Shown piece after piece: positions 9,314-62,541 of a stretch of 64,000 nucleotides of DNA; within the stretch, counting starts at the first letter, position 1; each line of letters begins with the position of its first letter. Under the pieces are notes generated by a model. That model saw only the letters and a list, made by a program, of their open reading frames with translations, was not told the origin of the DNA and searched no databases. Origin of the DNA: Parcubacteria bacterium C7867-005 (GTDB taxonomy: Bacteria > Patescibacteriota > Minisyncoccia > Phycocordibacterales > Zambryskibacteraceae); contig LFCO01000001.1 of the NCBI GenBank assembly GCA_001189165.1, positions 10,987 through 74,986 on the forward strand. The letters are read 5' to 3'. The translations under genes and the position numbers were made by a program.

Positions 9314-9407
9314 AATTAGAAGAGTGTTTGTGGGTATTTAACTTTTTTTCAAATATAAACAATGAACCCGCCTCCGACAGAGACGGGTGTCTTGTCGGGG
9401 CGGGCGG

Positions 9408-9731
9408 CTATTCATGCTTGAAGCAGATGGGGATATCGTCGTCGCGGAGGGCTCGGGCGATCGCGAGTCTTGCCCTGGGTACATTTGAGGCAAACACTCG
9501 CAGTTCTTGTACGGAGCGAGACTGACGAACCTTGAGGATTATGCCTCCTGCAAAGTCGCCAATCTTGACCTTCCGCATACCACCGGCGACGCCCTTGCCC
9601 TGCTGGATCAGACCCGGAGAGACTCCATCGACCTCAGCCAGTTTGCAGATGATGTCGGTGACATCAGCTGCAAGATCAGTGAAGGTGGTGTGAGTGCCAC
9701 GGATCTTCTTTCCATCTCGATGGTGTGGCAT
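9408..9731 (-). CDS. GC-rich ORF with weak resemblance to ribosomal protein bL27 (MPHHRDGKK..., ...GGIILKVRQ..., ...NVPRARLAIA...IPICF); alternative weak resemblance to the MazF/PemK C-terminal half
   Basis: 107 aa; ~60% GC versus ~38% for the flanks; similarity judged by eye only. Confidence 0.3.
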   Translation of the reverse strand: MPHHRDGKKIRGTHTTFTDLAADVTDIICKLAEVDGVSPGLIQQGKGVAGGMRKVKIGDFAGGIILKVRQSRSVQELRVFASNVPRARLAIARALRDDDIPICFKHE

Positions 9732-9801
9732 CGGTCACCTGGTTATGGAGTGGGGGTTCTACCTATAACAATAGCATGTTATCATAACAAAGTCAAATCT
9801 G

Positions 9802-9873
9802 TGACCCTACCGGGAGTCGAACCCGGCTTTAAAGCTTGAAAAGCTTTCGTCCTAACCGATAGACGATAGGGCC
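9802..9873 (-). tRNA. tRNA-Glu (anticodon TTC)
   Basis: Minus-strand cloverleaf: acceptor GGCCCTA/TAGGGTC (one GU), anticodon stem AAAGC/GCTTT, loop TTTTCAA, T-arm CCGGGTTCGACTCCCGG. Confidence 0.85.
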
Positions 9874-9944
9874 ATAAATGCCGAAATATAGTAACATTTT
9901 TGGCCAAAAAGGCAAAAAATGCTATAGTCCACCGAGGTTTGTAT

Positions 9945-10031
9945 GGAAGAGTGGCTGAGTGGTTGAAGGCACCGGTTTCGAAAACCGGCAGGCTCGTAAG
10001 GGTCTCGAGAGTTCAAATCTCTCCTCTTCCG
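9945..10031 (+). tRNA. tRNA-Ser (anticodon CGA), class II with long variable arm
   Basis: Acceptor GGAAGAG/CTCTTCC, anticodon stem-loop CCGGT-TTCGAAA-ACCGG, T-arm GAGAGTTCAAATCTCTC, discriminator G. Confidence 0.85.
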
Positions 10032-10033
10032 CA

Positions 10034-10160
10034 TTCAGAGAGATTTGAACTTGGAGGGGGTCGGGGAACCAAAAGGTTCTCCGTGGCGGGATCATTCAAA
10101 CCGAGGGGTTTGAAAGCGCAGGCGGAGCCGAGCAGTGAGGTTCTCTCCTCTTCCGCCAGG
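10034..10160 (+). other. tRNA-like remnant: duplicate of the tRNA-Ser 3' end (tctctcctcttccgc + CA) preceded by ~105 nt of hairpin-rich sequence; no full cloverleaf could be folded
   Basis: 15-nt identity between 10016-10030 and 10143-10157; hairpins GGAACCAAAAGGTTCC and CAAACCGAGGGGTTTG. Confidence 0.3.
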
Positions 10161-10188
10161 ATGTATTTTGTTATAAAGTAGCCGTATT

Positions 10189-10261
10189 GCGCGGTTAGCT
10201 CAGTTGGTAGAGCATCTCATTGACGTTGAGAGGGTCACAGGTTCGAATCCTGTATCGCGCA
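10189..10261 (+). tRNA. tRNA-Val (anticodon GAC)
   Basis: Acceptor GCGCGGT/ATCGCGC, anticodon stem TCTCA/TGAGA, loop TTGACGT, T-arm ACAGGTTCGAATCCTGT. Confidence 0.9.
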
Positions 10262-10302
10262 CAAATTTTGGAGGGTTTCGGTCGTCCTATATACTGTAGA
10301 TA

Positions 10303-11193: not shown

Positions 11194-11283
11194 GGTCCTT
11201 TACAGGATGGTTTTAATGTGATAGAATTTGTTCAGGCTCTTTTTTGATACACACACAACGCCACACAACGATAGGAGCTCCAC

Positions 11284-12003
11284 ATGCAGATCAGTTGGAA
11301 GTCAGTCCTCATCTACCTCGCGCTCTTCATGGGTCTCGGTGCCTCAGAGCTTGGGGCCCAGCAGATGCCCCAGAGCGCTCTCCAGCGTGGCCGGATGGCT
11401 GTGCCGAACAACGCGGAGATCGACAAGTATCCGCTCAAGGATACGGTCCTCACCCAAGCGGAGATGTCTTCGCTTGGGGTGCGCGCGGACACGCTCGAGG
11501 CCGACTGGACCGGATACAACTGGTTCAGGAACGTCAGGCGGTTCGCTTACGAGACGCTCCCCAAGGGGACCATCGTACTCGTGGACGGCGCCGGCAAGGT
11601 TCGGTACAAGGCAGACTGTGGTAACCGCCTCGTCGAGAAGGAGCAGATCCTGAACGCGATGGTGGCCACGAACACGATGCCGGATTCGTTGATCCGTCTC
11701 CTGCTCGCGAATAACTCGGCGCGGGTCACACCTGAGCTGATCAAGGAGATCATCCTTCGAGGCACAGTCACGTTGAACCACGAGTTCTCGGCGGAGTTCT
11801 TCCAGACTCTCGCTGCGGCCATCGTGGCTGCAGGGCAACCCGCACAGCCGGTACCACCGTTCCGTCCATCAGACGGTCGGAGCTACTGGTCCAAGCACAA
11901 GCCGGGGATCATCATCGGGGGCGTCCTGCTCGCTGGAGGTCTCGTCGCTCTGGCACAGAACGACTGGTGCTTGGTGTGCAACATCACGAACGTGTATCGA
12001 TAG
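11284..12003 (+). CDS. GC-rich secreted hypothetical protein (signal peptide and C-terminal TM)
   Basis: SP LIYLALFMGLGASELGAQ; C-terminal GIIIGGVLLAGGLVALA; GC-rich hairpin terminator gggcgggtgcatcactgcacccgccc downstream. Confidence 0.5.
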   Translation: MQISWKSVLIYLALFMGLGASELGAQQMPQSALQRGRMAVPNNAEIDKYPLKDTVLTQAEMSSLGVRADTLEADWTGYNWFRNVRRFAYETLPKGTIVLVDGAGKVRYKADCGNRLVEKEQILNAMVATNTMPDSLIRLLLANNSARVTPELIKEIILRGTVTLNHEFSAEFFQTLAAAIVAAGQPAQPVPPFRPSDGRSYWSKHKPGIIIGGVLLAGGLVALAQNDWCLVCNITNVYR

Positions 12004-12059
12004 TACCGATTCGTTCGGTACTCGGGCGGGTGCATCACTGCACCCGCCCTTCTTCATAT

Positions 12060-13058: not shown

Positions 13059-14222
13059 TTATTTTAATTTTGAACGGCGGAGGAAAGCGGGTACAGCACC
13101 CCAATCATCATCAGGATCATCCAGATGTTTGTCCGGAGTTTCCTTTTTTTCTTCCGCTGGTTTCTCTACAGGTTTAGGGAAGACGGGCATGCTGTTAAAT
13201 ATTTTGTCCTTGGTTATGTCCTCTCCAGGAGTTGATTGAAATAGGGAAGTGGCCTTGCGTTGAACACTCTCAGGGAAGCTTGAGGCGATAACAGTGATCT
13301 TGACCTCGCCCTTCTTAAGCTTCTCGTCTCTGACCGTACCGAAGATGATCTTGGCATTTGGATCCACAGATTCGGTGATAACTTTGGCTGCGTCTTGGAT
13401 CTCGAACATGGTGAGGTCGTCTCCACCAGCGATAGAGAAGAGCACACCCTTGGCACCGTTGATAGAGACTTCGAGGAGTGGTGAAGAGATAGCAAGTCGT
13501 GCTGCTTCTTCTGCACGTTTTTCACCAGAAGCATGTCCGATACCCATGAGGGCCGCGCCAGCATTTTCCATCACTGCGCGAATGTCTGCGAAGTCGATGT
13601 TGATGATACCCGGGGTAGTGATGAGGTCAGAGATACCTTCTACGGCTTGTTTCAATATATTGTCGCAGGTAGCAAAGGCATTCTTGGCAGTAGTATCTTT
13701 ATCTATAGTAGCGAGCAATCTGTCGTTAGGGATGATGATGATGGCGTCTACTGCCTGTTTGAGCTCTTCTATGGCCGCTTCTGCGATCTTCATACGTTGT
13801 GTTCCTTCAAAAAAGAAAGGTTTGGTGACCACTCCGACAGTCAGACAACCGGCTTCTTTGGCTGTACGAGCGAGCACCGGGGCTGCTCCAGAACCAGTAC
13901 CACCACCCATACCACAAGCGATGAACACCATATCTGCTCCCTTGATCGCTTCTTGGATTTCTTCTTTTGTTTCTTCAACCGCACGTTTGCCGAGGTCGGG
14001 GTTCATGCCTGTACCCAAACCACGAGTGAGGTTTTTGCCTATATGAATTTTTCTTTTGGCGAGTGAGTGGTGGAGGTCTTGTGCGTCAGTGTTTACAGAA
14101 ATAAAGTCCACTCCCTTAACTTTAGAGTTGATCATATGATTCACTGCATTTTTTCCTGAACCACCAACACCGATCACTTTGATCCGGGCGAATGCTTCTA
14201 CTTCTGGTTTGATTTGTGGCAT
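13059..14222 (-). CDS. ftsZ: cell division GTPase FtsZ
   Basis: IKVIGVGGSGKNAVNHM and tubulin signature GGGTGSGAAPV. Confidence 0.95.
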   Translation of the reverse strand: MPQIKPEVEAFARIKVIGVGGSGKNAVNHMINSKVKGVDFISVNTDAQDLHHSLAKRKIHIGKNLTRGLGTGMNPDLGKRAVEETKEEIQEAIKGADMVFIACGMGGGTGSGAAPVLARTAKEAGCLTVGVVTKPFFFEGTQRMKIAEAAIEELKQAVDAIIIIPNDRLLATIDKDTTAKNAFATCDNILKQAVEGISDLITTPGIINIDFADIRAVMENAGAALMGIGHASGEKRAEEAARLAISSPLLEVSINGAKGVLFSIAGGDDLTMFEIQDAAKVITESVDPNAKIIFGTVRDEKLKKGEVKITVIASSFPESVQRKATSLFQSTPGEDITKDKIFNSMPVFPKPVEKPAEEKKETPDKHLDDPDDDWGAVPAFLRRSKLK

Positions 14223-14345
14223 GTTTTTCTGTTTTGGCCGGCCCGTCCTCTGTAGGCTAGTCTTTGACTGTTAATGATGGCCATATACTACAGAAAGCCA
14301 CTATAAAAGAAAACCCGTTGACATTTATCTTTAAAGTTTTATTAT

Positions 14346-14942
14346 TTGCGAGGATTTCTGAACAAAAACCTGAGCCATGAGGCTACCTTGAAATACTTCG
14401 CGATCGTGAGAAACGGTGTCGTGCGAGCCGGTCCGAACGGCGGACCTCCTCGCCTCATCAGTCCGGATGGAGAGGGTCAGATGAGGCGAATCGGTCGGAT
14501 TCTCCAGCCACTCCTTACGGGGATCGACCACATCGCCCTTTCACTCTGCGCTGGCTCGGAGAGCTACCTCAGCCTTTCGGCCCAGAAGCTCCGAGAGGGC
14601 ATCCATTGGCCAGACAAGGTCAGATCGGAGACGCATACGTGCCTCGACCGATCGGATGACGGTCCGACTGTGGTGGCGGAGTGTCTGCGCCTGTTCAGTC
14701 GTATGAACCGGTGGTGTGACAAGGGTACGATCATCTTCGTCACCGGGGAGAAGCTCTCGATGGCCATCCCCAATGCGTACCTTGAGCGGATCGGTGTCAG
14801 GAACGAAGGTTTCAGCATGCCGCTCGAATACGCTTCGGCCCTCGTCATCGACGCGACCAAGCTCCACCGCTTCAGGGTCTTCGACCACCAGGAGCCGGAC
14901 AACGCAGTGTCGAAGTGGCTTGCCACGCCACTGGAGAAATAA
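14346..14942 (+). CDS. GC-rich hypothetical protein, opposite strand between ftsZ and ftsA; faint histidine-phosphatase-fold resemblance (RNG in place of RHG)
   Basis: 198 aa; GC-rich with overlapping antisense ORFs (14541-14950) that I regard as compositional artefacts. Confidence 0.35.
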   Translation: MRGFLNKNLSHEATLKYFAIVRNGVVRAGPNGGPPRLISPDGEGQMRRIGRILQPLLTGIDHIALSLCAGSESYLSLSAQKLREGIHWPDKVRSETHTCLDRSDDGPTVVAECLRLFSRMNRWCDKGTIIFVTGEKLSMAIPNAYLERIGVRNEGFSMPLEYASALVIDATKLHRFRVFDHQEPDNAVSKWLATPLEK

Positions 14943-14988
14943 CCGCTCATCGAGCGGTTATCTTATTATCAAAAATTAAACACAGTTA

Positions 14989-16654: not shown

Positions 16655-16906
16655 CTATCGCTTGCGCTTTGTGAACTTAGAAACTTCCTGCATTTTGCCG
16701 AGTTTGATCAATTCTGTAGTAACTTCTTTCTTTTTGAGGTAAGCAAGGGTCTTCGCGCGTTTGACGTTCTCTGACTTCACTCGTTCGTGGTATCTCTTTG
16801 AGCGAACTCGTGGTAGGAGGCCTGCACCCTGAACACGCTTCTGGAATCTGCGTAGGACAGAAAGGTTATTTTCACTAGAGCCTTTGGTGACTTCGATATT
16901 TATCAT
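16655..16906 (-). CDS. rpsU: 30S ribosomal protein S21
   Basis: LRRFQKRVQGAGLLPRVRSKRYHERVKSENVKRAK matches bS21 pattern (LRRFKR..AG...RR..YEKP...RKR). Confidence 0.8.
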   Translation of the reverse strand: MINIEVTKGSSENNLSVLRRFQKRVQGAGLLPRVRSKRYHERVKSENVKRAKTLAYLKKKEVTTELIKLGKMQEVSKFTKRKR

Positions 16907-17009
16907 GTGGGGGTTACTTTAGCACACCAACGGAGCCTCGGCAAGCATGAAGAAACCCCCGCCACCAGATACTTTGGTGTGCGGGGGGGGGTGGCTGAGG
17001 ACCGAGTCC

Positions 17010-17324
17010 TCAGCAGAGTAGGATCGGCGTGGCTCGGGTGGTGAGGGCCTGCATGACCGAGAGCCTGATCAGGGAGTTGACCCCGTTGAGGCTGGACTCG
17101 GACGATGAGAGCTCGATGGCGGAGAGGAACGCATCCTTCTCCGACCGTTCGATTCGACCCTCCTCGGCGAGCGCCATGACGAGTCCCTTCGCGACCTCGA
17201 GGGAGCCGAAGCCGTGCCTCGAGAGGTCGCTGAGCTGGACATGGCCTTCCTGGCCACAGAACTTGCAGATATGCAGACTTGCCTTGCGACGCATGCGAAT
17301 CTCCCCGGAAAGACGGTGAACCAT
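17010..17324 (-). CDS. GC-rich hypothetical protein with an incomplete CCHC knuckle (CKFCGQEGH)
   Basis: 104 aa; GC-rich; followed on the minus strand by tandem hairpins (16925-17008); frame uncertain because 17029..17319(+) overlaps. Confidence 0.25.
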   Translation of the reverse strand: MVHRLSGEIRMRRKASLHICKFCGQEGHVQLSDLSRHGFGSLEVAKGLVMALAEEGRIERSEKDAFLSAIELSSSESSLNGVNSLIRLSVMQALTTRATPILLC

Positions 17325-17376
17325 CGGTGTACATCAGACCCTACTATAGCACACGTATTATTTAAAAGTCAAGTGG

Positions 17377-19198: not shown

Positions 19199-19729
19199 AT
19201 GTATATTGTTGTAGGTTTAGGAAACCCAGGAGAAGAATACAAAGAGACACGTCACAATACAGGACGTATGGTGATGGATTTTCTTACAAAAAAAGACATT
19301 TTGAACACGAAATTTGTTCATCTGGATACTTTTATGAACAAGTCCGGAGCCGGAGTAGCCAAAGTAGTCAAATCCAAAAAATCTGCAGAAAAACTGGTGG
19401 TTGTTTATGACGATTTGGATTTACCTATCGGTACCATGAAAGTTTCTTATGATCGGAGTTCGGGTGGTCACCGCGGAGTAGAGTCCATCATAAGGGCTCT
19501 AAAGACACAAGCCTTCATCCGCATCAGGGTTGGTATTTCTCCAAGTACCCCATCAGGTAAGCTTAAAAAACCACAGGGTGAAAAAGATGTTGAGAAGTTT
19601 ATCATGGGCAAGTTTGGCCCCAAAGAAAAAGAAATGCTAAAAAAGGTTTTTAAGCACATACCAGAGACACTAGAGGCGCTCGCCACAGACGGTCTACAGA
19701 GGGCGATGACAGTCGGTAATACCAAATAA
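19199..19729 (+). CDS. pth: peptidyl-tRNA hydrolase
   Basis: MYIVVGLGNPGEEYKETRHNTG and DDLDLPIGTMKV signatures. Confidence 0.9.
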   Translation: MYIVVGLGNPGEEYKETRHNTGRMVMDFLTKKDILNTKFVHLDTFMNKSGAGVAKVVKSKKSAEKLVVVYDDLDLPIGTMKVSYDRSSGGHRGVESIIRALKTQAFIRIRVGISPSTPSGKLKKPQGEKDVEKFIMGKFGPKEKEMLKKVFKHIPETLEALATDGLQRAMTVGNTK

Positions 19730-21473: not shown

Positions 21474-21508
21474 CCCCCCGTGTCAACCTGCCAGGTTGAC
21501 ACGGGGGG
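21474..21508. repeat. 35-bp perfect palindrome ccccccgtgtcaacctg-c-caggttgacacgggggg (copy 1)
   Basis: Arms exactly reverse-complementary; core gtgtcaacctgScaggttgacac shared with the copy at 42911-42947. Confidence 0.75.
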
Positions 21509-21543
21509 ATGAAGACAGCCCCCAAAGCGCGGGGCTTTGGGGG

Positions 21544-28271: not shown

Positions 28272-28272
28272 A

Positions 28273-28749: not shown

Positions 28750-28758
28750 AACAAACCA

Positions 28759-50490: not shown

Positions 50491-50494
50491 ACCC

Positions 50495-51331: not shown

Positions 51332-51664
51332 ACAGGAATTGCACAAGACTTGACTTATTCTTCTGAGGGTGTATAGTGTGTGCAGATTCAGTACAAAGGC
51401 TGATCAGAGTGACTTACAGGAAGATTCGTAAGGGCAACTCTGGTGGCAGGGGAATACACCAGCGTAAGAGCAGGTGCACCGAACGCGTAGTATCCCACGT
51501 TCCGCGTCGCGCCGGTTGGCTGTATTCTTGGGAGACACTCTGCACCACTTGGAGTCTATACCCCTTCACCTGCTGTGGATTTACAAATCCCCAGCCCCGC
51601 CCTACGCGCCCCCACACTTCTGTGTGCGGGCGCGGTTTCATTTAGATTTTTATACAATACTCTT

Positions 51665-52621
51665 ATGAGTCAAGGTTTCTGGAACAAATTAAAAAAACCA
51701 ATCATGGTTCTCGCGCCGATGGCAGATGTCACTGATCCGGCCTTTCGACGTATTATCGCTCGGCATGGTAAACCAGACGTCACTTGGACCGAGTTCGTTT
51801 CTGCTGATGGTCTTGTCCTCGCACCAGAAGAGGGTAGGAAGAAACTCTTGAAAGATTTGGAATACTCTGAATCCGAGCGTCCAATCGTCGCTCAATTCTT
51901 CACCTCATCTCCAGAAAATATGGAGAAGGCAGCTAGACTCGCACGTGAGCTTGGGTTTGATGGCATAGATATAAATATGGGTTGTCCAGACAAGAGCATA
52001 GAGAAGCAGTGTGCTGGTGCTGCGCTCATCAAGAATCCAAAGCTCGCTCGGGAGTTAATTCGTTCTGCTAAACTCGGTGCGGGGGATCTGCCTGTATCTG
52101 TGAAAACCCGTGTTGGGTACAACAAAGAAGAACTCGATATATGGATAAAAGAGATACTCAGTGAATCCCCAGCCGTGCTCACGGTCCATGCGCGTACGAG
52201 GAAGGAGATGTCCAAAGTCCCCGCACGTTGGGAGCTAGTGAAGAGAGTGGTAGAGATGAGGGATGAGCTCGGTGTAGACACTTTGATACTGGGGAATGGT
52301 GATGTAGTAGATATTGATGATGGCAGGAGGAAATGCGAAGAGACTGGCGCAGATGGGGTGATGCTCGGCAGGGCGATATTTGGTAACCCGTGGTTATTTG
52401 CAGAACATATACCCACCACTAGAGAGAAATTATTAGTGATGGTAGAGCATACAAAACTATTTGAAAAATTACTCGGCGAATACAAAAATTTCGCCATTAT
52501 GAAGAAACACTATAAGGCGTATGTGAACGGGTTTGAAGGAGCAGGGGAGCTTCGTGGTCAACTGATGCTGGCTGTAGATGCAAGGGGGGTCGAAGAAGTA
52601 GTCCACAACTATCTGAAATAG
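51665..52621 (+). CDS. dus: tRNA-dihydrouridine synthase
   Basis: MVLAPMADVTDPAFRRI, DGIDINMGCP (catalytic Cys), TVHART; start MSQGF at 51665 (the ORF track extends to 51575 into a GC-rich leader). Confidence 0.85.
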   Translation: MSQGFWNKLKKPIMVLAPMADVTDPAFRRIIARHGKPDVTWTEFVSADGLVLAPEEGRKKLLKDLEYSESERPIVAQFFTSSPENMEKAARLARELGFDGIDINMGCPDKSIEKQCAGAALIKNPKLARELIRSAKLGAGDLPVSVKTRVGYNKEELDIWIKEILSESPAVLTVHARTRKEMSKVPARWELVKRVVEMRDELGVDTLILGNGDVVDIDDGRRKCEETGADGVMLGRAIFGNPWLFAEHIPTTREKLLVMVEHTKLFEKLLGEYKNFAIMKKHYKAYVNGFEGAGELRGQLMLAVDARGVEEVVHNYLK

Positions 52622-53157
52622 TGTTTTGACAGTCATCTTGCATATAGTATATTTAGATTTCTGGTGCTAAGCGGTAGCGGACAGACGTGTCTCTACGGAG
52701 CCCAGATCCTGCACCCTCAGTTCCATTCACCCCAGGAGGTTCACGGTGCCCCGACGTAACGCCCCGTCGTTCCACCTGAAGATCGCCCAGACCGCGTACC
52801 AGCAGGCGAAGGCCGGGATCCTCACCGGCAAGAGCGCGACCGATCCGCAGTACACCGACGGCGATTCCGCCGCGGCCATCCGCGCCTAGCACAAGGCGAA
52901 GAGCGCAACGCGCGGACACGAGGTACACCGACGCAAGACACACATCAGCGCCGGTGCGACCCAGATCGTCTTCCTGAAGTGAACACAACCGTCCGCAAGG
53001 ACACCTACCCGCACCGATTTCCATCGGTGCGAATCTTTTTATATAGGCTATTGACTTTATTTTGTATATATGCTAGGGTTAACTTGTTGAGGTCGAGCGA
53101 CAGGGAATCACCCTGTGAGGCCACAACAAGCACACTCCACTCGTTCGGAGGATCCAC

Positions 53158-53313
53158 ATGATCAGCCGCTCCCTCGCTCCGCCGTCCGTCGCGCTCCTCT
53201 CGGCCACCCACACGGGGGCCCGTATGAACACCATGGTCCATCGCGGCGCGAACATCGTCGGCATCGGCATCCACGGCTCGGGCGCGTCGCCCGCCGCCGG
53301 CTCCCGCGACTAG
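53158..53313 (+). CDS. candidate GC-rich mini-ORF (51 aa, MISRSLAPPSVALLSATHTGARMNTMVHRGANIVGIGIHGSGASPAAGSRD) with RBS GGAGG; coding status uncertain
   Basis: AT-rich promoter-like block (TTGACT..TATATA) at 53045-53075, GGAGG 6 nt before ATG, two downstream hairpins; ends at TAG. Confidence 0.25.
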   Translation: MISRSLAPPSVALLSATHTGARMNTMVHRGANIVGIGIHGSGASPAAGSRD

Positions 53314-53613
53314 CACGGCCGCGGCGCCGATCACTGTCATTCGACAGAAGGCATCAGCCCTTCGGTTGAACTGACGGCAACCTCTCGTGCTTCTCTGTAC
53401 GAGTAGGACTTCGTTCGAGTACGACTCGGGAGTGCCGACGGGGTGGATCGTTTGAATCCATCGCCGTCGGCACGACCCGACCCCCCGCGCACCCTAACCC
53501 GGTGCGTTTAACTTTTATAAAATTTCCCTGTGCGTGTATAATAAGATTCTGGTTGGGGATGCAGTTTGCAAACTCTAACCAGATGTTCTCACATCCTTCC
53601 ACGGAGTCCTGCC

Positions 53614-53736
53614 ATGAAAGACCGGCACTCGAGCACCAGACACCCGCGTATGGGAGTCACTCTCGAGACCAAGGGCCAGATGCGAAGCAAGACCGGCGGA
53701 TCCATCCGCTACATGTGGCCAACCCCAGGAGGCTGA
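53614..53736 (+). CDS. candidate GC-rich mini-ORF (40 aa) in the second promoter-terminator unit; may instead be an sRNA
   Basis: Extended -10-like gtgTATAAT at ~53540, GGAG 7 nt before ATG, hairpin gagcgactcatgtgagtcgctc + T-rich at 53766-53795. Confidence 0.2.
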   Translation: MKDRHSSTRHPRMGVTLETKGQMRSKTGGSIRYMWPTPGG

Positions 53737-53799
53737 TCCATGGAATACGGTGCGTGAACACCCCCGAGCGACTCATGTGAGTCGCTCTCTTTAATACAG

Positions 53800-53828
53800 T
53801 TGACAAAAATACGTATTGGGTTTATAAT
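53800..53828 (+). promoter_or_regulatory. consensus sigma70-type promoter TTGACA-17-TATAAT driving a ~150-nt GC-rich transcript that ends at hairpin 53979-54000
   Basis: Exact TTGACA (53800-53805), 17-nt spacer, exact TATAAT (53823-53828); downstream hairpin cggaccc-ttcg-gggtcc + tttgtg. Confidence 0.5.
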
Positions 53829-54136
53829 GGTCGTTAGAGAAGTGAACAGTATGGCAGAGAATAGATGGAAGCCGGGGCGCGATCCGTGGTGAGTCGTCGG
53901 GGCCCGGAATCCCCGCCGTTCCACTCGGGTCCGCCTCGGCCCCGTCTGCCCATCCTTCGTTTACTCGTTCCATTTACACGGACCCTTCGGGGTCCTTTGT
54001 GCTATATAAATTTTCAAAACAAACACCCCTTTACAAACCAAATTTTTTATGATAAGAAGATGTAAGAGGAAAGTGGTACCAAACTACTTTCGACTCAATC
54101 CGCCCTTTCAGTCTTCACGTTTCTCTAGGAGATCCC

Positions 54137-55009
54137 ATGCATCGCGCTCGGCTGTATCTCTTGCTTGCGGTGGGGATATTCCTCACCGCCTGCAGGAATG
54201 AGACCAACGTCTTCGGCCCCGGCAACGGTCCGAACGGACCGAATAACGGACCAGACGGTGGACGATCGGCGTTCGCATCGGCAGGCTTCAGGCCCGCTGA
54301 CACGACCATCGTGGTGAGCACCCGCTACCACGCTCTGGGCCAGATCTTCGTCGAGCAGGGTCGGTCACCGAACCTGCTCATCCGTACGAGGCAGTGCGTC
54401 CAGTACGTGGGCTCACCGCTCATCACCTGGACCGGCCAGTCTGGCTGGTACAACGTGGACGTCACCCTCCAGGGTGTGGCTACGTGCAGGGATTCGATCG
54501 TGTTCAAGTTCGCGCACGATACGACCATCACCACGTTCATCCGTGCGACGGTCGTCTCCGCTCCTGGTGGCCCCGGCATCCCCACGATGACGGTGACACC
54601 TCCGGGCGGTAGTGGTCCGGTCGGTACTGGTTCGCAGTCGAATTGCATCATCACTGGTGTCACTGACACGCGGTGCTGGGCATACTCGACGGATCCTTCA
54701 CGGATCGCTGTGGTTCAGAAGGATACAACCTTCGCAACCGCGACGAACCCGTGGACGGCCGGATCACATCTGTCCGGTGAGATCCGATTCATGTTCGCAG
54801 GTTCGGCGAATATCTGCAGGTACTGGGTCGTTGACCCACGAGTGGCACAGTGCCATCAGTGGAATGCGACGGTCCCGAGCCTGCAGTCGTCCGACATGAT
54901 GTCGGCGAGCTACGGACTTCGTGATGCGAAGCTGTCCGAAGAGGGCGGCCGTCTTTACGAGGTCGTCCTCGATCGGATGAAGCAGAACGGGGAGAAAATC
55001 CACCGGTAG
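54137..55009 (+). CDS. GC-rich lipoprotein (lipobox LTAC), hypothetical
   Basis: MHRARLYLLLAVGIFLTAC signal and lipobox; RBS TAGGAGATCCCATG; GC-rich. Confidence 0.5.
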   Translation: MHRARLYLLLAVGIFLTACRNETNVFGPGNGPNGPNNGPDGGRSAFASAGFRPADTTIVVSTRYHALGQIFVEQGRSPNLLIRTRQCVQYVGSPLITWTGQSGWYNVDVTLQGVATCRDSIVFKFAHDTTITTFIRATVVSAPGGPGIPTMTVTPPGGSGPVGTGSQSNCIITGVTDTRCWAYSTDPSRIAVVQKDTTFATATNPWTAGSHLSGEIRFMFAGSANICRYWVVDPRVAQCHQWNATVPSLQSSDMMSASYGLRDAKLSEEGGRLYEVVLDRMKQNGEKIHR

Positions 55010-55096
55010 CAAAAGACCCCAAAGGGGCGCCCAGCGATTAAGTTCGCTGGGCTTCTTATTTATATGAGTCTACAAATCGTTTGCTATACTAGACCC

Positions 55097-56155: not shown

Positions 56156-56662
56156 CTACGAGGTGGCCTGCTTGGTGGGGGATCCAGTCCACCAAGAACG
56201 GATCTGTTCCACGAACCCGATGAAGTAGCCGATGATACAGAAGATGATCATCACGGCGACGGCCACTGGTCCGAGGATGAAGGACACAGTTTCCATAATC
56301 CAGAAATGGAAGTGCCCTCTGTTCATCTCGAAGTACACTTCTTCGTGGAGACCCTTCTCTCGGATCTCTTTGAAGGAGTAGTTCCGCTTGCTTCCGCCGA
56401 AGAACCCATCATCCCACACGGCCATCATGATCTCGATGTCGTTGAAACGATGTACCTTGCCACCCGGGAGGTGGCAGAGCATGTCATCGGTAAAGCACTT
56501 CAGGATGTCTGTCCAGGAATCGACCTCTCCGCCGTTCACGACGAAGGAGAGGAAGCTCAGGATGTACCATCCGAAGAGCGAGACGCCGAGCCAGCCGAGC
56601 ACGAAGAGGATCTGGAGCCAGAGCGACCAGCTGACGAAGGTGTCGAGCATGTTCGAGAGCAC
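56156..56662 (-). CDS. GC-rich hypothetical membrane protein (3 TM)
   Basis: 168 aa; N-terminal and C-terminal hydrophobic helices. Confidence 0.4.
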   Translation of the reverse strand: MLSNMLDTFVSWSLWLQILFVLGWLGVSLFGWYILSFLSFVVNGGEVDSWTDILKCFTDDMLCHLPGGKVHRFNDIEIMMAVWDDGFFGGSKRNYSFKEIREKGLHEEVYFEMNRGHFHFWIMETVSFILGPVAVAVMIIFCIIGYFIGFVEQIRSWWTGSPTKQATS

Positions 56663-56794
56663 GGGGTCTCCGTTTGTGGAGGGAGGGGGAACTCAAGTCC
56701 TATCTGAAATTACCTTATATATAACAAGTGGTCAATATTAAATAACTTAGTCAAGTTTATTGACTATTCAAGACGGAGGAGTAATATACTCGAC

Positions 56795-57229: not shown

Positions 57230-57300
57230 TGGGGGATCGTCTAATGGTAGGACAGAAGCCTTTGAAGCTTCTAATCTTGGTTCGATTCCAAGTCCCCCAG
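57230..57300 (+). tRNA. tRNA-Gln (anticodon TTG)
   Basis: U1-A72 acceptor TGGGGGA/TCCCCCA typical of bacterial tRNA-Gln, anticodon stem-loop GAAGC-CTTTGAA-GCTTC, T-arm CTTGGTTCGATTCCAAG. Confidence 0.85.
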
Positions 57301-57347
57301 CCAGTTTGAGGTAGGTTCAGAGTTCGAGGAGCATATAAATAACTAAT

Positions 57348-58064
57348 ATGAAAGAGATCCAAGAAGATATAAATAAATTTAAAGAATTTGAATCAAAGGA
57401 AGTTAATGCTGCCATTAAGGAATTAGAAGGCATTACAACTGAATCAAACAGGAAACATTTGCAAAGACTTGTTTATGTTAACTTGGTTAACCGCTTCGAT
57501 GCTCTTGTTGATAATTTGTTGCTTAAGTTTTCAATACTTGACGGCCTATTTAAAGTAAAGGTCTTGCAAGAGACAAAGGGTGAAGAAGTATTTCTCAAGG
57601 ATATTTATGAAATTTTGCTATCTGAAAATCCAAAAAATGCCGTACAACAACGAGTAGAAAATGTAGCTAGAGGTAAATTTTTAAGCCAAAGACACTCTTT
57701 AAAACTAAGAACCCTTTTATTTTTTTGCTTTTCTTGGCCAGAGACTGATCTTGATAGGCCGAGAGTTTTCACTAATAATGGATCAATCTTTGTCGACAAT
57801 AAAAGATTAAAACCTTATCAAATACCAGACACTGTAATTGGGTATGCTGATTGGTTGTATGCTAGACGTAACGCACTTGTGCATGGCGATGGAAAAAAAC
57901 TAGCTTCAAAAGATCTGGGATTTATGCAACAAAAGTTTGGTGCGAAACCCGCCTCTACGATAAGTTTGAAAATATCTTCAATTAAATCTGCTGTTCGGTT
58001 TTATAATGATCTATGCGAAGCTCTTTCAGTGCCCCAAGACTTAGTCCGAGGTGCATTAGAATGA
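57348..58064 (+). CDS. hypothetical protein with HEPN-like Rx4H motif (LYARRNALVHGDG); possible HEPN-family RNase / Abi-like protein
   Basis: 238 aa; AT-rich; all-alpha-like composition; RNxxxH motif near the C-terminus; 48 nt downstream of tRNA-Gln. Confidence 0.4.
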   Translation: MKEIQEDINKFKEFESKEVNAAIKELEGITTESNRKHLQRLVYVNLVNRFDALVDNLLLKFSILDGLFKVKVLQETKGEEVFLKDIYEILLSENPKNAVQQRVENVARGKFLSQRHSLKLRTLLFFCFSWPETDLDRPRVFTNNGSIFVDNKRLKPYQIPDTVIGYADWLYARRNALVHGDGKKLASKDLGFMQQKFGAKPASTISLKISSIKSAVRFYNDLCEALSVPQDLVRGALE

Positions 58065-58156
58065 TTAAATATTTAATTGATAAAAGCCTTATAGGGTCTC
58101 ATTGGAAAATTAACGAACCCGAGGAGGCAGCCAAGTTTTGATCTATAATTGATTCT

Positions 58157-58696
58157 ATGAACTTTTATGTGGCAATTGAGATTATTGGTTCTCTTGTTTA
58201 CTTAACACAAAAGATTCTTCTAAGTTTTAGTAAGAGAGTTGGCTGGGTATTGGGGATCATGGGTTCTGCTGCTTTTGCGACTGTAACTTTCCATAAAGGT
58301 TCTTATGCATACGGAATACTTGAAGTTACAAGTGGTATAATTTTTTTCTTTGGATTGATTTTATGGGGTAAGTCTGGCGCGAAAGAAAAATGGATGACGT
58401 TTGCAATGAGTACTGTAGCCATACTCGGTATTATTTTGGTGTCAGTTCTCAATCTTGGATCTCCAAATTGGATACTTGAGACTTTAGTGGTGATACTTTT
58501 TGCAATTGGGGCGATTTTTCTTGTTCTCAAAAAACCAATAGGTTGGTTCCTATATGGACTAGGACATCTAGTACTAACCATATACGCTTACCAACTTGGG
58601 ACTTACTACATTATGATCTTGCAGGTAGTGTCTTTACCCTTTGCTTTTATCGGTTATAGGAGGTTTGGGTTGGTTAATCTGGTCCGATATTATTAG
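58157..58696 (+). CDS. PnuC-like nicotinamide riboside transporter family membrane protein (6-7 TM)
   Basis: 179 aa polytopic protein; N-terminal IEIIGSLVYLTQKILLSFSKRVGWVLGI resembles the PnuC helix-1/2 pattern (IEAVGTIAGLL..WLAS.EKISNYFFGLI); by-eye only. Confidence 0.4.
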   Translation: MNFYVAIEIIGSLVYLTQKILLSFSKRVGWVLGIMGSAAFATVTFHKGSYAYGILEVTSGIIFFFGLILWGKSGAKEKWMTFAMSTVAILGIILVSVLNLGSPNWILETLVVILFAIGAIFLVLKKPIGWFLYGLGHLVLTIYAYQLGTYYIMILQVVSLPFAFIGYRRFGLVNLVRYY

Positions 58697-58711
58697 TGTT
58701 AATATGACGAC

Positions 58712-58951
58712 ATGAGCGATATTGAAATTTGTCCAATTTGTAGGAAGTCGTACTCTTCCAGAAACCCAAGAGTTCAGTATCATCTCCAATACAAACCAAC
58801 CGGAGAATGGATTTATGCATGTAGGCTATGTAATTATGCTGAGCATCTTTCTAGACCGAGAAATTGGAAAGGGTGGTATAAACCATGGATCTGGTCTCGT
58901 ATAAAATTGACTAGAGAGTTCGCTAAAGCCAGTCCACATTTAACTTATTAG
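58712..58951 (+). CDS. small zinc-ribbon protein (CPIC...CRLC)
   Basis: 79 aa; two CxxC pairs; Trp/Lys-rich C-terminus. Confidence 0.35.
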   Translation: MSDIEICPICRKSYSSRNPRVQYHLQYKPTGEWIYACRLCNYAEHLSRPRNWKGWYKPWIWSRIKLTREFAKASPHLTY

Positions 58952-59086
58952 ATAGACGCATTAGATATGTGGCTTAAGGTGCTGAAATTTAGCTAGTCCC
59001 GTCAAGTGGGGCTTGGTCCACTGGGGGTTCTAGCTCGAGACGGCTAGCAAATACTTGAAGTTTTAACTTTTGGTATAGTTAGTCAC

Positions 59087-59557
59087 ATGGCAAAAGTATG
59101 TGACCATACAAGTGTTGGAATGCTCGTTTGGAAAGAGGGGAAACTCCTTCTCATCGAAAGGAGGAAGTTTCCCTTTGGTTTTGCTATACCTGCAGGCCAC
59201 GTTGATGAAGACACAAGCTTTGAAAATGCAGCGATACGAGAGCTCAAAGAAGAAGTTGGGCTTGATGCAATAGATCTAGAACTAGTCATAGAAGGCAGAA
59301 AAGAAAATTTATGCAGGCGAGAAGACGGCTCTTGGCATTTCTGGAAAATATATAAAGTTGATAACAAAGGAGAACTAGAGCCAAGTTCTGAGGAGACAAA
59401 AAGAACGGGTTGGTACTCAAGTGAAGAGATCCAGAAATTAGGAGAGCGTACAGAAAAGTATCTGGCCGGGGAGATTTCTGATGAAGAGTGGGAGGGTGAT
59501 CCAGGGCTCGAACCAGTGATGTATAATTGGTTTAAAGAACTAAACATAATACGATGA
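59087..59557 (+). CDS. Nudix hydrolase
   Basis: Nudix box AGHVDEDTSFENAAIRELKEEVGL (REUxEExGU). Confidence 0.8.
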   Translation: MAKVCDHTSVGMLVWKEGKLLLIERRKFPFGFAIPAGHVDEDTSFENAAIRELKEEVGLDAIDLELVIEGRKENLCRREDGSWHFWKIYKVDNKGELEPSSEETKRTGWYSSEEIQKLGERTEKYLAGEISDEEWEGDPGLEPVMYNWFKELNIIR

Positions 59558-59964
59558 TGAAAATAACAATTTGTGGATCCATGAAATTTAATGACAAGTT
59601 CCTTGAACTAAAGAGCGAGCTGGAAGCTGTTGGCCACGAAGTCCTCATGCCGGTGGCCGTGAGCGGTCTAGATTATTGGGAGGATGATGGTACGAAACGT
59701 ATTGAGGCGAAGAAGGGTCTCGGACTCGTCGGGAAACATTTAGACAAAATTACCGAATCTGAAGCTATTCTGGTGGCAAATTATACTAAGGGAGACATTG
59801 AAAACTATATTGGGGCCAATACTTTTCTTGAGATGGGTTATGCAAAATATAAAGATAAAAAGATCTTTACTATCAATCCTTTACCTAACCAAAAATATAT
59901 TGATGATGAGTTGTTATCTTTTGAACCTGTTGTTTTGAATGGAGATATTTCTAAGATTGTATAA
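59554..59964 (+). CDS. nucleoside 2-deoxyribosyltransferase-like (Rcl/NDT family) protein
   Basis: MKITICGSMKF Rossmann-like start and GANTFLEMGYAKYKDKKIF matching the NDT catalytic-Glu region (G.AFE.GYA...KP); 4-nt overlap with the Nudix gene. Confidence 0.55.
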   Translation: MMKITICGSMKFNDKFLELKSELEAVGHEVLMPVAVSGLDYWEDDGTKRIEAKKGLGLVGKHLDKITESEAILVANYTKGDIENYIGANTFLEMGYAKYKDKKIFTINPLPNQKYIDDELLSFEPVVLNGDISKIV

Positions 59965-60058
59965 CCTAAATTAGCATGTCATCAATTGGGGGCTATCTGA
60001 CTGGCTAAATAAGTTAATTTAAAAAATCCAACTTCTGCATTGACTAATTATTTTATAA

Positions 60059-60622
60059 TTGTATAGTCGGAGGTGTAGCGAGCTCATCCTGAGAGAGCTA
60101 CAAAACCTTAAGGAGGGTGACCCTATGGGGAGCCTTGTCAGTGAGACACCTTTCTCTGAAGTTTCCGCGACCATGGAGCTCCTTGCCAAGCATGGAGTCG
60201 AGAGGGAGGATCTGGTGTTCTTTCGTAGGTACCACAATGGGTTCGCGCCCAGCGTGGCGAATATGATCAAGAGCGGTCGAATGCTGTTCGCCCAGGCCAT
60301 GGGTCCTAACGAAGAAGCGGGGCTGTCTGCTGTCGCTCAAATAGTGGATCGTCGAATTCTCTACGACATCGCGATGTATCCCGACAGTCTCACTTCTGTA
60401 AGGATCGCTGCTGTGGGCAAACTTCCGCAGTCCGAGCTCTACGACGTGGCCCGGATCACCTGGGAAGCAGAAGTTGCAGAAGCGGCAATGCTCCACCTCG
60501 ATGCCGGATACCTCAGTATGTTGTGGGGGTGCGACTCGATCGGAGCTGGGCTCAATCGAGGTGTGATCCACAGGCGATGGGAGGAGCTAGAAAATCAGCG
60601 TCTTCAGAAAGGTCGTCGCTGA
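60059..60622 (+). CDS. GC-rich hypothetical protein
   Basis: 187 aa; no motif; followed by terminator agtccggatc...gatccggact + tttt (60641-60700). Confidence 0.35.
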   Translation: MYSRRCSELILRELQNLKEGDPMGSLVSETPFSEVSATMELLAKHGVEREDLVFFRRYHNGFAPSVANMIKSGRMLFAQAMGPNEEAGLSAVAQIVDRRILYDIAMYPDSLTSVRIAAVGKLPQSELYDVARITWEAEVAEAAMLHLDAGYLSMLWGCDSIGAGLNRGVIHRRWEELENQRLQKGRR

Positions 60623-60815
60623 GTAGGTTCCATGTAGTCGGTTGTTATCTCAGTCCGGATCCCACATAACACTTGTGGTGATCCGGACTTTTTGTATAAA
60701 CATATAAGCCTATATCACAGTAGGGCGGGCAACTTGACTTTTACAATTCGACGAGACATAATAAAAAAGTTCCTTTCAATTCATTATTCACATTCATTAT
60801 TTAATTTAGTTCACA

Positions 60816-61130
60816 ATGCCACACAAATCTAGCGATAAAATAATCGGTATTTGGAAATTTTCCCACAAAGTCAGCCCAGAGACTCTGGCTGAAGTAGCAG
60901 AAAAATGGGCAACAGAGGATTCTAGGTACGAACACCTGTATGTCAGACAGGTATCCAAGGATCAGCACGGTATAGGTTTCGAATATCGAGCATACGAAGG
61001 GATAGATTCTGAGAATCACAAACAGAGTTACGACGAGTACTTCGAAAAAACAACAGACAAACTTAAGAGAGAATTCGGTAATGATTTGGCTGGTTGGGAC
61101 ATCTCTTCCAGCTCATACGTTATCAAGTAG
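60816..61130 (+). CDS. hypothetical protein
   Basis: 104 aa; promoter TTGACT-17-CATAAT upstream (~60745-60775); terminator aaataccccgcaaggggtatttt downstream. Confidence 0.4.
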   Translation: MPHKSSDKIIGIWKFSHKVSPETLAEVAEKWATEDSRYEHLYVRQVSKDQHGIGFEYRAYEGIDSENHKQSYDEYFEKTTDKLKREFGNDLAGWDISSSSYVIK

Positions 61131-61249
61131 TAGTTTAAATAATTGAAAGGAATCAAAATACCCCGCAAGGGGTATTTTGTTTTGGTTGTTTTATTTGCTA
61201 CAGCATTCATTTCCTAGCAATAAAATAAATTTGACTCAGTGGCATATTC

Positions 61250-61588
61250 GTGATTTTATTGCGAAAGAAGTATAAACCCACCGCGACGAGGTGTCGGATG
61301 CCGGACAGTAAGCAGGACATCAAGACGTTCGTGAATCATAGCGGGACGTGGTCGCACGACGGTCCCTTCTCGGTGGAGCTCACCCCAGATGCAAACAAGC
61401 TCATCGCTCCACCCGGAGCACGGATCGAGGGAGACACCCTCCACTTCCGTAGTGGGCGAGTGAGTCAGTCCGTTGGTGGTATCCAATTCTTCTCAAGCGG
61501 GAAGCACTTCTACTGGGGGTACAAGTTCCTCAAGGTCATCCGGGACGGGGCCGGCAACCTCCTTTGGGTGAACGATAATTACCGGTGA
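61250..61588 (+). CDS. GC-rich hypothetical protein
   Basis: 112 aa; likely start MPDSKQ at 61298; followed by repeat-terminator copy 1. Confidence 0.3.
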   Translation: MILLRKKYKPTATRCRMPDSKQDIKTFVNHSGTWSHDGPFSVELTPDANKLIAPPGARIEGDTLHFRSGRVSQSVGGIQFFSSGKHFYWGYKFLKVIRDGAGNLLWVNDNYR

Positions 61589-61605
61589 CCTCGATTCGAA
61601 GTGTC

Positions 61606-61638
61606 TAAGCCGATCCTAACAGATCGGCTTTCTTGTAT
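61606..61638 (+). repeat. terminator-hairpin repeat, copy 1 (taagccgatcctaacagatcggctttcttgtat)
   Basis: 31/33 identical to the 62510-62541 copy; 9-bp stem aagccgatc/gatcggctt + T-rich. Confidence 0.7.
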
Positions 61639-61755
61639 ATAAATCCAACGGATATTCATGAGATGTGAGTAATTGACAATGTATCTTAAGCATGTTATTT
61701 TTTTGAATAGACGTAGTTATCTTGATACAACACCACTTCACCCGAGGACCGCTCC

Positions 61756-62508
61756 ATGCTTTCCGTATTGGTCGTTCTCCTGTTTGGTTGGCTCGTCTCT
61801 GCGGTGGCCGTCAAGCAGGCCAGCTACATCCTCATCCACGGTTCGATCTTCGAATCGCTGAGGAACTGGATCGAAGATGGCATGCACAGAGAGTGGTTCG
61901 GGTTCGAAAAGCTCAGAGAGCTTTTCACCTGCCAACTCTGCATGACCACGCAGGTGAGCATCTGGTTGGTGGCGATACCGCTCCTACTCTCGGGGAGGGT
62001 CCCAGCTGTCGGATTCGTCGAGACTGTCGCCGGTTTCGCCGTGACGGTTTTCGCGGTCTCTGGACTTGCGATCTGGTTCTGGAATCTGTCCGAGTCCGGG
62101 CCCAAGAGGCTCGAGGCTGATCGTAAACGCTACGACCAGATCATCATCTCGCTACGTAAGGAGATCTCCTCTGGCGCCCCGCCCGAGCAGACATCGGCCC
62201 CGTCGAGTTACATGGATCGAGAGATGTTCGGTCGTTTGCTCGACCACATCGAATCAGCATGCAAGGGGCATGGGTGTGGCTATAGCCGAAGGGATTGCCG
62301 ACGCGAAGAAGCACGCCAATTCACTGTCAACCAGATGCGCTTGGGCATGCTCGCTCAACGCTTCGGAGTTGAAGTGCTTCTCGGCGCCCTCGACGAGACG
62401 CTCCCGGAGTACTTCAGGTTGAGGTGGCGCAACAAGAGCAGTTCGTCCCACCTGAATTCATTCAGGGATAAGGTCTTCGCCAGACTCACCGCGATCACCA
62501 CCCCATAA
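61756..62508 (+). CDS. GC-rich membrane protein with N-terminal DUF1360-like domain (FTCQLCMTTQVSIW) and Cys-rich cytoplasmic tail
   Basis: 3 TM; CxxC between TM helices resembling DUF1360 SCPFCxGxW; bracketed by near-identical terminator hairpins. Confidence 0.45.
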   Translation: MLSVLVVLLFGWLVSAVAVKQASYILIHGSIFESLRNWIEDGMHREWFGFEKLRELFTCQLCMTTQVSIWLVAIPLLLSGRVPAVGFVETVAGFAVTVFAVSGLAIWFWNLSESGPKRLEADRKRYDQIIISLRKEISSGAPPEQTSAPSSYMDREMFGRLLDHIESACKGHGCGYSRRDCRREEARQFTVNQMRLGMLAQRFGVEVLLGALDETLPEYFRLRWRNKSSSSHLNSFRDKVFARLTAITTP

Positions 62509-62509
62509 C

Positions 62510-62541
62510 AAGCCGATCCTAACCGATCGGCTTTCTTGTAT
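62510..62541 (+). repeat. terminator-hairpin repeat, copy 2 (aagccgatcctaaccgatcggctttcttgtat)
   Basis: See copy 1. Confidence 0.7.

Follow-up and report, generated by a model that had tools for sequence, protein, structure and literature searches.

In bacterial pangenomes, hot spots of integration are known to lie between core genes that are conserved, and acquired bacterial genes are usually AT-richer than the genome that receives them. Here we describe a series of short GC-rich islands lying between core genes in a 64,000-nt stretch of Parcubacteria bacterium C7867-005 (contig LFCO01000001.1, positions 10,987-74,986 of the forward strand; hereafter, the window). This organism is a Zambryskibacteria-like Parcubacterium, and its genome, of 564 kb and 42% GC, originates from the Hanford aquifer; GC islands go unmentioned in the paper that reported it (PMC4508563). 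Matches to identical proteins also locate the window on contig DGYO01000004.1 of GCA_002396705.1. Horizontal gene transfer is common in aquifer Patescibacteria, where it makes up as much as 13% of genome length and where 83% of the inferred transfers take place within the phylum (PMC12455944).

The islands of the window resemble the transferred islands of those aquifer genomes (PMC12455944) in phylum and type of habitat, in the sizeable share of acquired DNA, in pointing to exchange among Patescibacteria and in their membrane-associated cargo. Unlike them, the units found here measure only 0.2-1 kb, comprise a single gene or less, carry no mobility genes and are all high in GC, and no donor-recipient pair was identified. 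As in pangenome hot spots, variable and lineage-specific cargo occupies the same core junctions in many species. The slots here, however, hold one or two tiny genes, most of them are not beside a tRNA, and integrases, phage remnants and att sites linked to a tRNA are absent from them. Like integron cassettes, the units are compact, carry a single open reading frame (ORF) and are each trailed by a hairpin, and one of them (61645-62547) has copies of a hairpin on both sides. Integron arrays consist of IntI, attI and promoterless ORFs with attC sites, whereas the units in the window are dispersed, possess a promoter-like site of their own and show neither an integrase nor an attC-like repeat family; in contrast to attC sites, their hairpins are ordinary T-tailed terminators, with a sequence that is shared by one pair only.

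The reading that we favour, and whose chance of being correct we put at about even, is that a GC-richer gene pool of Parcubacteria or other members of the Candidate Phyla Radiation (CPR) supplied the islands, as accessory cargo lodged in variable junctions between core genes. The islands fit the frequent and mostly intra-phylum transfer published for aquifer Patescibacteria (PMC12455944); what sets them apart is a consistent excess of GC at third codon positions (GC3) across hosts.

Composition and layout of the GC-rich units

Islands were called as runs of at least 100 nt in which GC smoothed over 200 nt exceeded 0.53, and the profile was also computed at 300 nt. The initial annotation had reported sharp GC jumps at 12 intervals, of which 11 came out as clear islands, with about 55-63% GC compared with ~43% elsewhere; the remaining one (51340-51670, 51.4%) was marginal. 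Taken together, the 12 intervals had a GC content of 57.1% (individual values 51.4%-61.7%), against 45.6% for the whole window and 43.2% for the remainder, and the 300-nt profile climbed steeply to 0.55-0.66 at the listed positions. Given a binomial standard deviation (SD) of ~0.022 for a 500-nt segment, the island excess of 0.12-0.19 corresponds to more than 5 SD. Overall, ~17% of the window is GC-richer cargo, arranged in ~17 sharply bounded mini-genes.

The reading frame of each island was picked by the coding signature GC3 > GC1 > GC2, where GC1 and GC2 refer to the first and second codon positions, and this yielded 13 island ORFs. Their GC3 (mean 0.75, range 0.60-0.95) showed zero overlap with that of the 49 backbone ORFs (mean 0.42, range 0.26-0.53), giving a Mann-Whitney U of 637, the maximum possible (p=4e-8), and this complete separation bore out the compositional contrast that had been perceived by eye. 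GC1 and GC2 were likewise raised in the island ORFs, and the median ratio of GARP to FYMINK amino acids was 1.23 in island proteins compared with 0.80 in backbone proteins. Since the amino-acid make-up is GARP-rich, the island proteins too reflect a GC-rich history. Translational selection was considered as a cause of the high GC3 and rejected, because S1, IF-2 and ClpB, which are expected to be highly expressed, are not GC3-rich.

Housekeeping genes of the backbone, which had been described as uniformly AT-rich, were roughly so (GC 0.35-0.48). Beside them lies an AT-rich accessory block (57300-60000), none of whose genes was syntenic among the 80 dus-centred loci introduced below. Because this block is accessory as well, accessory DNA in the window departs from the core in both directions.

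Upstream of the island genes we found, from sequence only, a TTGACA/TTGACT-16/18-TATAAT-like site. It is followed by a 40-60-nt CA-rich 5' leader that ends in GGAG and a C-rich spacer, and a GC-rich hairpin with a T tail stands 3' of the bodies. Each island gene is predicted to be its own compact transcription unit, in which the GC-rich body lies between a putative promoter and a terminator hairpin. When the window was scanned with a TTGACA/TATAAT-like consensus scored out of 12, 12 of the 17 best matches (at least 10/12) sat immediately 5' of GC-rich units, according to a tally of the scan outputs. Terminator-like sites between 50 and 64 kb numbered 24, with 12.3±3.2 expected. The same predicted arrangement of promoter, body and terminator was seen in the islands that lack an ORF (52626-53995, 21014-21450 and 51350-51635). 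The boundaries of the units are sharp in codon composition as well: GC3 was 0.431 in the 150 nt of core genes nearest the islands and 0.436 in the rest of the same genes (p=0.71), which indicates no spill-over.

The genome was assembled from a metagenome, and reads of a GC-rich organism might conceivably have been mixed in during assembly or binning. Three other assemblies (JGI 3300001199, Logan SRR5324951 and Logan SRR2043728) match the window at 99.99-100% identity, junctions included, with contigs that cover 6 to 21 kb each and span many island junctions. Because independent assemblies are nearly identical across the junctions, chimerism, a concern raised by the initial annotation itself, is excluded as far as is possible without reads. 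The islands moreover are complete transcription units that stand singly, with the core genes on both sides intact, and we regard an artefact of this kind as exceedingly improbable.

Most islands had been said to encode proteins with a signal peptide or transmembrane (TM) segments. By a Kyte-Doolittle hydrophobic-segment threshold, 7 of the 13 island ORFs qualified, compared with 18 of the 49 backbone ORFs (Fisher p=0.34), and counting also 11284, for its signal-like N-terminus, and 54137, for its lipobox-like LTAC, brings the islands to 8-9. The majority thus stands, and the enrichment over the backbone is a suggestive trend that does not attain significance. The published share of TM proteins in the whole genome is 31% (PMC4508563).

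Core-gene junctions in relatives and searches for a source

Two sets of related loci, ~160 in all, were collected: scanning genomes with FtsZ gave 80 loci, which belong to Zambryskibacteria-like and other species of Parcubacteria, and scanning metagenomes with Dus gave 80 further loci. On the ftsZ side, the order gyrA-h121-MBL-S1-pth-lepB-hisS-h83-ybeY-ftsA-ftsZ-trxB was kept, with the individual genes present in 40-77 of the 80 loci; the genes on the dus side (parB-relA-topA-dprA-serS-h278-dus-holB) were found in 24-58 of 80. Island ORFs had zero to one homologue each in the same related loci, the exceptions being 11284 (found in locus L049) and 61250 (found in L060). No homologue of 9408-9731 was detected in the 80 ftsZ-syntenic loci, none of 14346-14942 in the related loci and none of the array at 52626-53995 in the 80 dus-centred loci, and 17010-17324 was absent from the 71-75 relatives that retain its flanking genes. 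The description of the islands as foreign single-gene insertions therefore holds in that they are distinct, sharply bounded and mostly absent from syntenic junctions in ~160 loci, and fails for 30200-32440, as described below.

The junctions themselves are recurrently occupied. Intervals of at least 300 nt were found between MBL and S1 in 27 of 40 relatives and between S1 and pth in 37 of 57, and intervals of more than 300 nt between dus and holB in 35 of 48, their contents being nearly all non-homologous between species. Across the loci, 13.8% of the 150-nt windows in non-conserved DNA were high in GC, compared with 3-6% in conserved DNA. Among 428 non-conserved segments from 101 loci, cargo GC followed host GC with a slope of 0.81 and an SD of ~0.06, and only 5% of the segments exceeded host GC by more than 0.10. 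A single crude measure of high-GC cargo gave 0.26 for the window and 0.27-0.43 for L010, L020, L045 and L071. As these relatives are comparable, the genome is not unique but marks the GC-rich end of a pattern seen across the clade. In the slot after trxB, one family is common to the window and L049, and the closest relative, L010, holds a different family.

Every island with detectable homology pointed to related Parcubacteria or other CPR, and none elsewhere. A concatenated tblastn search with the 13 island proteins (E<=1e-3) returned no match among 72,556 plasmids and 50,697 phages, and scans of viral contigs with 54137, the SPFH protein (31344-32429) and 61756 gave none either. Ten island proteins compared with PHROGs produced one weak match of unassigned function (E=5e-4), and the same proteins gave no match in PADLOC. 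Only two Pfam families scored above cut-off, Band_7 (31344-32429) and DUF2103 (9408-9731), the rest being sub-threshold. Of ten island proteins looked up in the protein collection, seven were present, each as a singleton at 90% identity. With the covariance models of Rfam 15, the window yielded nothing but 13 tRNAs at the gathering threshold and the islands no match at E<=1, and nothing was found in the GC-rich dus/holB gaps of seven relatives.

These searches bear on the proposal, made in the initial annotation, that a high-GC partner outside the CPR, such as an actinobacterial host, repeatedly supplied the islands. A GC3 of up to 0.95 and GARP-rich proteins are typical of genomes above 60% GC, and most island proteins are orphans, which leaves room for such a source. 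For codon usage, we took as references plasmid stretches of Thermus, Streptomyces, Cupriavidus and Rhodococcus together with high-GC CPR loci. The islands prefer C- and G-ending codons (ATC 0.89, TTC 0.93, AAG 0.88), and in relative synonymous codon usage they correlated as well with Rhodococcus (r=0.82) and with Streptomyces (r=0.77) as with high-GC CPR (r=0.68). Their leucine codons tell a different story, CTC (0.56) being much preferred over CTG (0.20), a preference common to islands, backbone and high-GC relatives. The ratio CTC/(CTC+CTG) was 0.74 in the islands, 0.67 in high-GC CPR and 0.61 in Thermus, compared with 0.49 in Rhodococcus, 0.35 in Streptomyces and 0.23 in Cupriavidus. AGG makes up 0.24 of arginine codons and GGT 0.30 of glycine codons; the CTC preference and the use of AGG look to be the only CPR-like codon traits of the islands. 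Furthermore, the plasmid, phage and viral-contig searches were empty, all detectable homologues, several of them at the same syntenic slot, belong to related CPR, and random pieces of host DNA would not be delivered as tidy units of promoter, ORF and terminator. Taken together, this argues against a partner outside the CPR, which we judge improbable.

A full HMMER search with the SPFH protein of interval 30200-32440 recovered full-length homologues, 25-50% identical, in 84 representative clusters. A word-index protein search had returned the self match only, which is therefore to be read as a limit of sensitivity, and the orphan status of the other island proteins is provisional, given that the apparent orphanhood of SPFH reflected the search used. 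Four top homologues that were located on CPR contigs all lie in the order SPFH, membrane-protein gene, T4SS (type IV secretion system)-pilin cluster, SBP, methyltransferase gene and gyrA, the methyltransferase gene being missing from one of the four. The SPFH protein groups the window with L090, the one highest in GC among the four genomes (49% compared with 38-40%), whereas GyrA, SBP and pilin93 favour L093. This mild incongruence weakly hints at orthologous replacement.

Acquisition or native retention of the GC excess

Under the reading that the islands are cargo from a GC-richer CPR pool, each item would be a self-contained unit that runs from a sigma-70-like promoter through a short CA-rich leader carrying GGAG and a GC-rich body to an intrinsic terminator. 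Encoded in these bodies would be small lineage-restricted proteins, often secreted or membrane-bound, or possibly small RNAs (sRNAs). Their high GC3, raised GC1 and GC2 and GARP-rich proteins would stem from long evolution in a background richer in GC than this 43% GC genome, and the likely source would be other, GC-richer Parcubacteria or CPR, or mobile elements of these. Uptake would probably have occurred by natural transformation, a dprA gene being present, with subsequent illegitimate insertion, and some items may since have decayed. While the composition of the islands, their boundaries and positions, their absence from relatives, the kinship of every homologue found with CPR and the recurrence of the islands in separate assemblies are observed directly, we infer transfer itself, its direction and the route of uptake.

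Several observations weigh against this reading. The donor was not found: it would need a GC content of ~57-68%, and the maximum among the 160 related loci is ~0.55. No recombinase (integrase or transposase) appears in the gene calls of the window. In 11 of 12 units, direct and inverted repeats at the flanks did not rise above chance, and att sites are lacking, as are flanking repeats other than one duplicated terminator. Overall codon-usage distances do not separate the high-GC reference taxa, and the uniform regulatory architecture would suit a native gene class equally well. The SPFH gene is present in the same order in four relatives, so that 30200-32440 is not a new insertion. Finally, the GC3 excess is not confined to this genome. 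Homologues of the cargo families exceed the GC3 of their own host in 8 of 8 cases (+0.03 to +0.25), as do the SPFH orthologues in 3 of 3 (+0.02, +0.10 and +0.18). As protein identities are only 30-50%, a simple recent transfer explains this shared excess poorly.

The last points are those on which the main competing explanation is built, namely that the islands represent a native, lineage-specific class of fast-evolving and autonomously transcribed genes for envelope or small proteins, kept GC-rich in situ, possibly by selection on mRNA or codon composition or by GC-biased gene conversion at hypervariable loci, so that their GC3 would be uncoupled from that of the host. The initial annotation had offered a lineage-specific amelioration-resistant gene class as its alternative. 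All 11 homologue comparisons go in the same direction, and the SPFH gene is syntenic yet GC3-elevated in three of four genomes. Over 20 family members, mean GC3 was 0.66 for the genes and 0.46 for the hosts, the regression of gene on host GC3 had a slope of 0.62 and an intercept of 0.37, and every point lay above the host value, in a test that was seeded from GC-rich genes and is hence biased. The uniform layout of promoter, leader and terminator and the marked CTC preference shared by islands, backbone and high-GC relatives agree with a native class as well. Old residents, on the other hand, would be expected at the corresponding junctions of relatives, from which most islands are missing. 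Regional conversion would be expected to spill over into the flanks, which show no such effect, and amino-acid composition is shifted in addition to codon composition. Translational selection is unlikely for the reason given above, and across 47 relatives the mean GC3 excess in the post-trxB slot is ~0. We therefore consider retention in situ a serious contender that is nevertheless rather unlikely.

The GC3 excess across hosts can be accounted for in two ways: either the families circulate in a GC-richer sub-pool of the clade, or a gene-specific force acts on them. The second option can be taken further, to the speculative proposal, to which we would lend slightly less credence than to retention in situ, that many species of Parcubacteria share a gene class of its own kind, made up of mini-genes that are transcribed autonomously, specify small envelope proteins and possibly sRNAs, and have their GC3 held far above that of the core whatever the GC of the host. 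If so, the composition would record, in place of a residue from a donor, some pressure particular to these genes of ultra-small symbionts that raises their GC, for example selection for mRNA composition or biased gene conversion where surface loci are hypervariable. If the cargo instead comes from other CPR, as we favour, the islands map an exchangeable pool of surface genes in unculturable organisms, together with the junctions at which it is exchanged; if the GC excess is kept in place, an unrecognised force shapes composition in reduced genomes.

Single units, their annotation and neighbouring features

The coordinates of the units and of other features mentioned are collected in Table 1.

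Table 1. GC-rich units and other features of the window. Promoter-like and terminator-like sites are predictions; match scores out of 12 are in brackets, and descending coordinates denote the reverse strand.
Coordinates	Strand	Feature	GC / GC3	Promoter-like site	Terminator-like site
4888-7116	+	742-aa PG_binding-like surface protein; tandem repeats, 294-300 nt period
9408-9731	-	107 aa, DUF2103-like; in island 9360-9740, beside tRNA cluster	GC 0.56, GC3 0.60	9796 to 9768	9388 to 9366
11284-12003	+	239 aa; signal-like N-terminus, C-terminal TM segment; convergent with trxB	GC3 0.80	11199-11227	12024-12049
14346-14942	+	ORF interposed between ftsA and ftsZ, strand opposite to theirs; start probably downstream of 14346	GC3 0.73	14318-14345 (11)	14939-14961
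17010-17324	-	104 aa; between hisS-like gene and h83/ybeY	GC3 0.81, GC1>GC2	17372 to 17343
21014-21450	-	GC-rich unit of ~400 nt without ORF, upstream of rpsA (S1); no period-3 signal		21453 to 21426 (11)	21036 to 21018
21544-21819	-	91 aa; signal-like N-terminus; at MBL/S1 junction	GC3 0.66	21898 to 21871 (12)	hairpins after ORF, including palindrome 21473-21509
25473-25916	-	147 aa; between gyrA and methyltransferase gene; most extreme island gene	GC3 0.95
30291-31214	-	307-aa membrane protein, 4 TM; downstream partner of SPFH gene	GC3 0.78	TTGACA-17-TATAAT, read by eye	read by eye
31344-32429	-	SPFH/Band-7-like, 347 aa from 32387, N-terminally anchored	GC3 0.74
48328-49188		dprA
51350-51635	+	short, weakly GC-enriched unit upstream of dus (marginal island 51340-51670)	GC 0.514	51350-51377 (10)	51620-51635
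52626-53995	+	array: three or four units, short and GC-rich, with promoter, 150-400-nt body and hairpin terminator apiece, at about 52626-53031, 53040-53507, 53514-53787 and 53800-53995	GC up to 0.66	three matches (11, 10 and 12; the last at 53800-53828)	53010, 53487, 53766, 53980
54137-55009	+	290 aa, lipoprotein-like (…FLTAC); at dus/holB junction	GC3 0.74		55029-55052
56156-56662	-	168 aa, 2 TM segments	GC3 0.82		56169 to 56147
57300-60000		AT-rich accessory block: 238-aa hypothetical, PnuC-like NMN transporter, Nudix protein, 136-aa hypothetical	GC 0.34-0.42
60059-60622	+	165 aa from 60125, cytoplasmic-looking; singleton	GC3 0.61	60040-60067
61250-61588	+	96 aa from 61298	GC3 0.73		61607-61630
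61645-62547	+	promoter, ORF 61756-62508 (250 aa, 3 TM) and terminator	GC3 0.73	61673-61701

The two proteins with a Pfam assignment matched DUF2103 (PF09876; 9408-9731, E=6e-7, 29.7 bits, curated cut-off 22.4) and Band_7 (PF01145; 31344-32429, E=1.4e-7, 32.2 bits, curated cut-off 23.6). The product of 54137 had no family match in Pfam, PHROGs or PADLOC and formed a singleton cluster at 90% identity. For 11284, which has a weak match to DUF6777, the sole homologue is a 208-aa protein (L049 6919-7545, 36% identical) that occupies the same slot after trxB, also convergent with it, and whose gene has a GC content of 0.55 in a locus of 0.435. A jackhmmer search with 11284 against all ORFs of the 160 loci found nothing beyond it, and a metagenome scan with the alignment of the two proteins recovered no relatives. 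The homologue of 61250 is an 89-aa ORF (L060 1720-1989) with 46% identity (E=1e-18).

The protein encoded at 25473-25916 consists of a signal peptide and a single copy of a clade-specific repeat domain of ~96 aa (I.P.H.WYP..S..T...C..G). Its residues 53-145 match, by phmmer and BLASTP, the tandem repeats of orthologues of the 742-aa surface protein encoded elsewhere in the window. A word-index protein search with it gave the self match only.

Two of the units without an ORF may be of other kinds. The one at 21014-21450(-), with a minimum free energy z-score of -3.4, is a candidate for a long leader of S1 or for a structured RNA of a novel kind. In the array at 52626-53995, a period-3 signal with GC3 of 0.85-0.92 extends over 64-72 codons in 52671-52886 and 53119-53310, where a convincing start codon is lacking; its units may specify small proteins or sRNAs, or may be genes in decay.

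The unit at 61645-62547 is the only island with an above-chance flanking repeat (an exact match of 17 nt, compared with a null maximum of 10). On either side of it stands a copy of the terminator hairpin, forming a direct repeat of 38 nt (61607-61644 and 62510-62547, 92% identical), a possible scar of insertion or duplication.

Overlapping ORFs rich in Arg and Asp had been put down to an artefact of high GC, and GC1-rich ORFs in the wrong frame do exist, several of them publicly annotated. Where the window is GC-rich, the publicly called genes are GC1-rich or GC2-rich ORFs whose frame or strand is probably wrong. Wrong-frame calls comprise a 143-aa ORF at 16903-17334(-), over the locus of 17010-17324, 52653-53024(-), 53005-53340(-) and 56306-56707(+), a GC1-rich ORF on the strand opposite to 56156-56662. 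The exact proteins of 17010-17324(-) and 56156-56662(-), which are likely to be the true ORFs there, are missing from the protein collection. At 14.4-14.9 kb, the NCBI and JGI gene calls lie on different strands, and 14564-14950 is among the suspect calls. Given that gene callers mis-frame such stretches, small envelope proteins of CPR are probably under-annotated.

In stomatin-NfeD operons, an SPFH/Band-7 protein is accompanied by a downstream membrane partner. The window shows the same succession, with the Band_7 gene followed by a gene for a multi-pass membrane protein, 30291, which, unlike the partner in those operons, matches neither NfeD nor any other Pfam family; relatives have a gene at its position whose similarity to 30291 is undetectable. 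The SPFH family to which 31344-32429 belongs is small, and all members with examined context stand beside the T4SS-pilin cluster in CPR. In the window, the region 26599-32429 contains the SBP gene, six small T4SS-pilin-like (PF18895) genes and the SPFH and membrane-protein genes, and it recurs in at least four CPR contigs. This arrangement suggests that the SPFH protein and the neighbouring membrane protein may belong functionally to a pilin or surface apparatus.

Directly adjoining the SPFH orthologue of L093 is a gene for an IS200/IS605-type Y1 transposase (356-1030). Transposases of this type act on DNA hairpins, and this one could bear on the movement of hairpin-ended units.

Finally, a perfect palindrome of 37 nt, TCCCCCCGTGTCAACCTGCCAGGTTGACACGGGGGGA, occurs twice in the window, at 21473-21509 and, in a copy 89% identical, at 42912-42948, inside a miaA-like ORF (42572-43459). 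Its core, GTGTCAACCTGSCAGGTTGACAC, recurs in Parcubacteria contigs (L117 556-578; L119 about 13635-13655 and 19419-19439), and two Logan contigs terminate exactly at the two palindrome copies. The palindrome may serve as an operator, or else represent a REP-like element or a mobile palindrome of small size.

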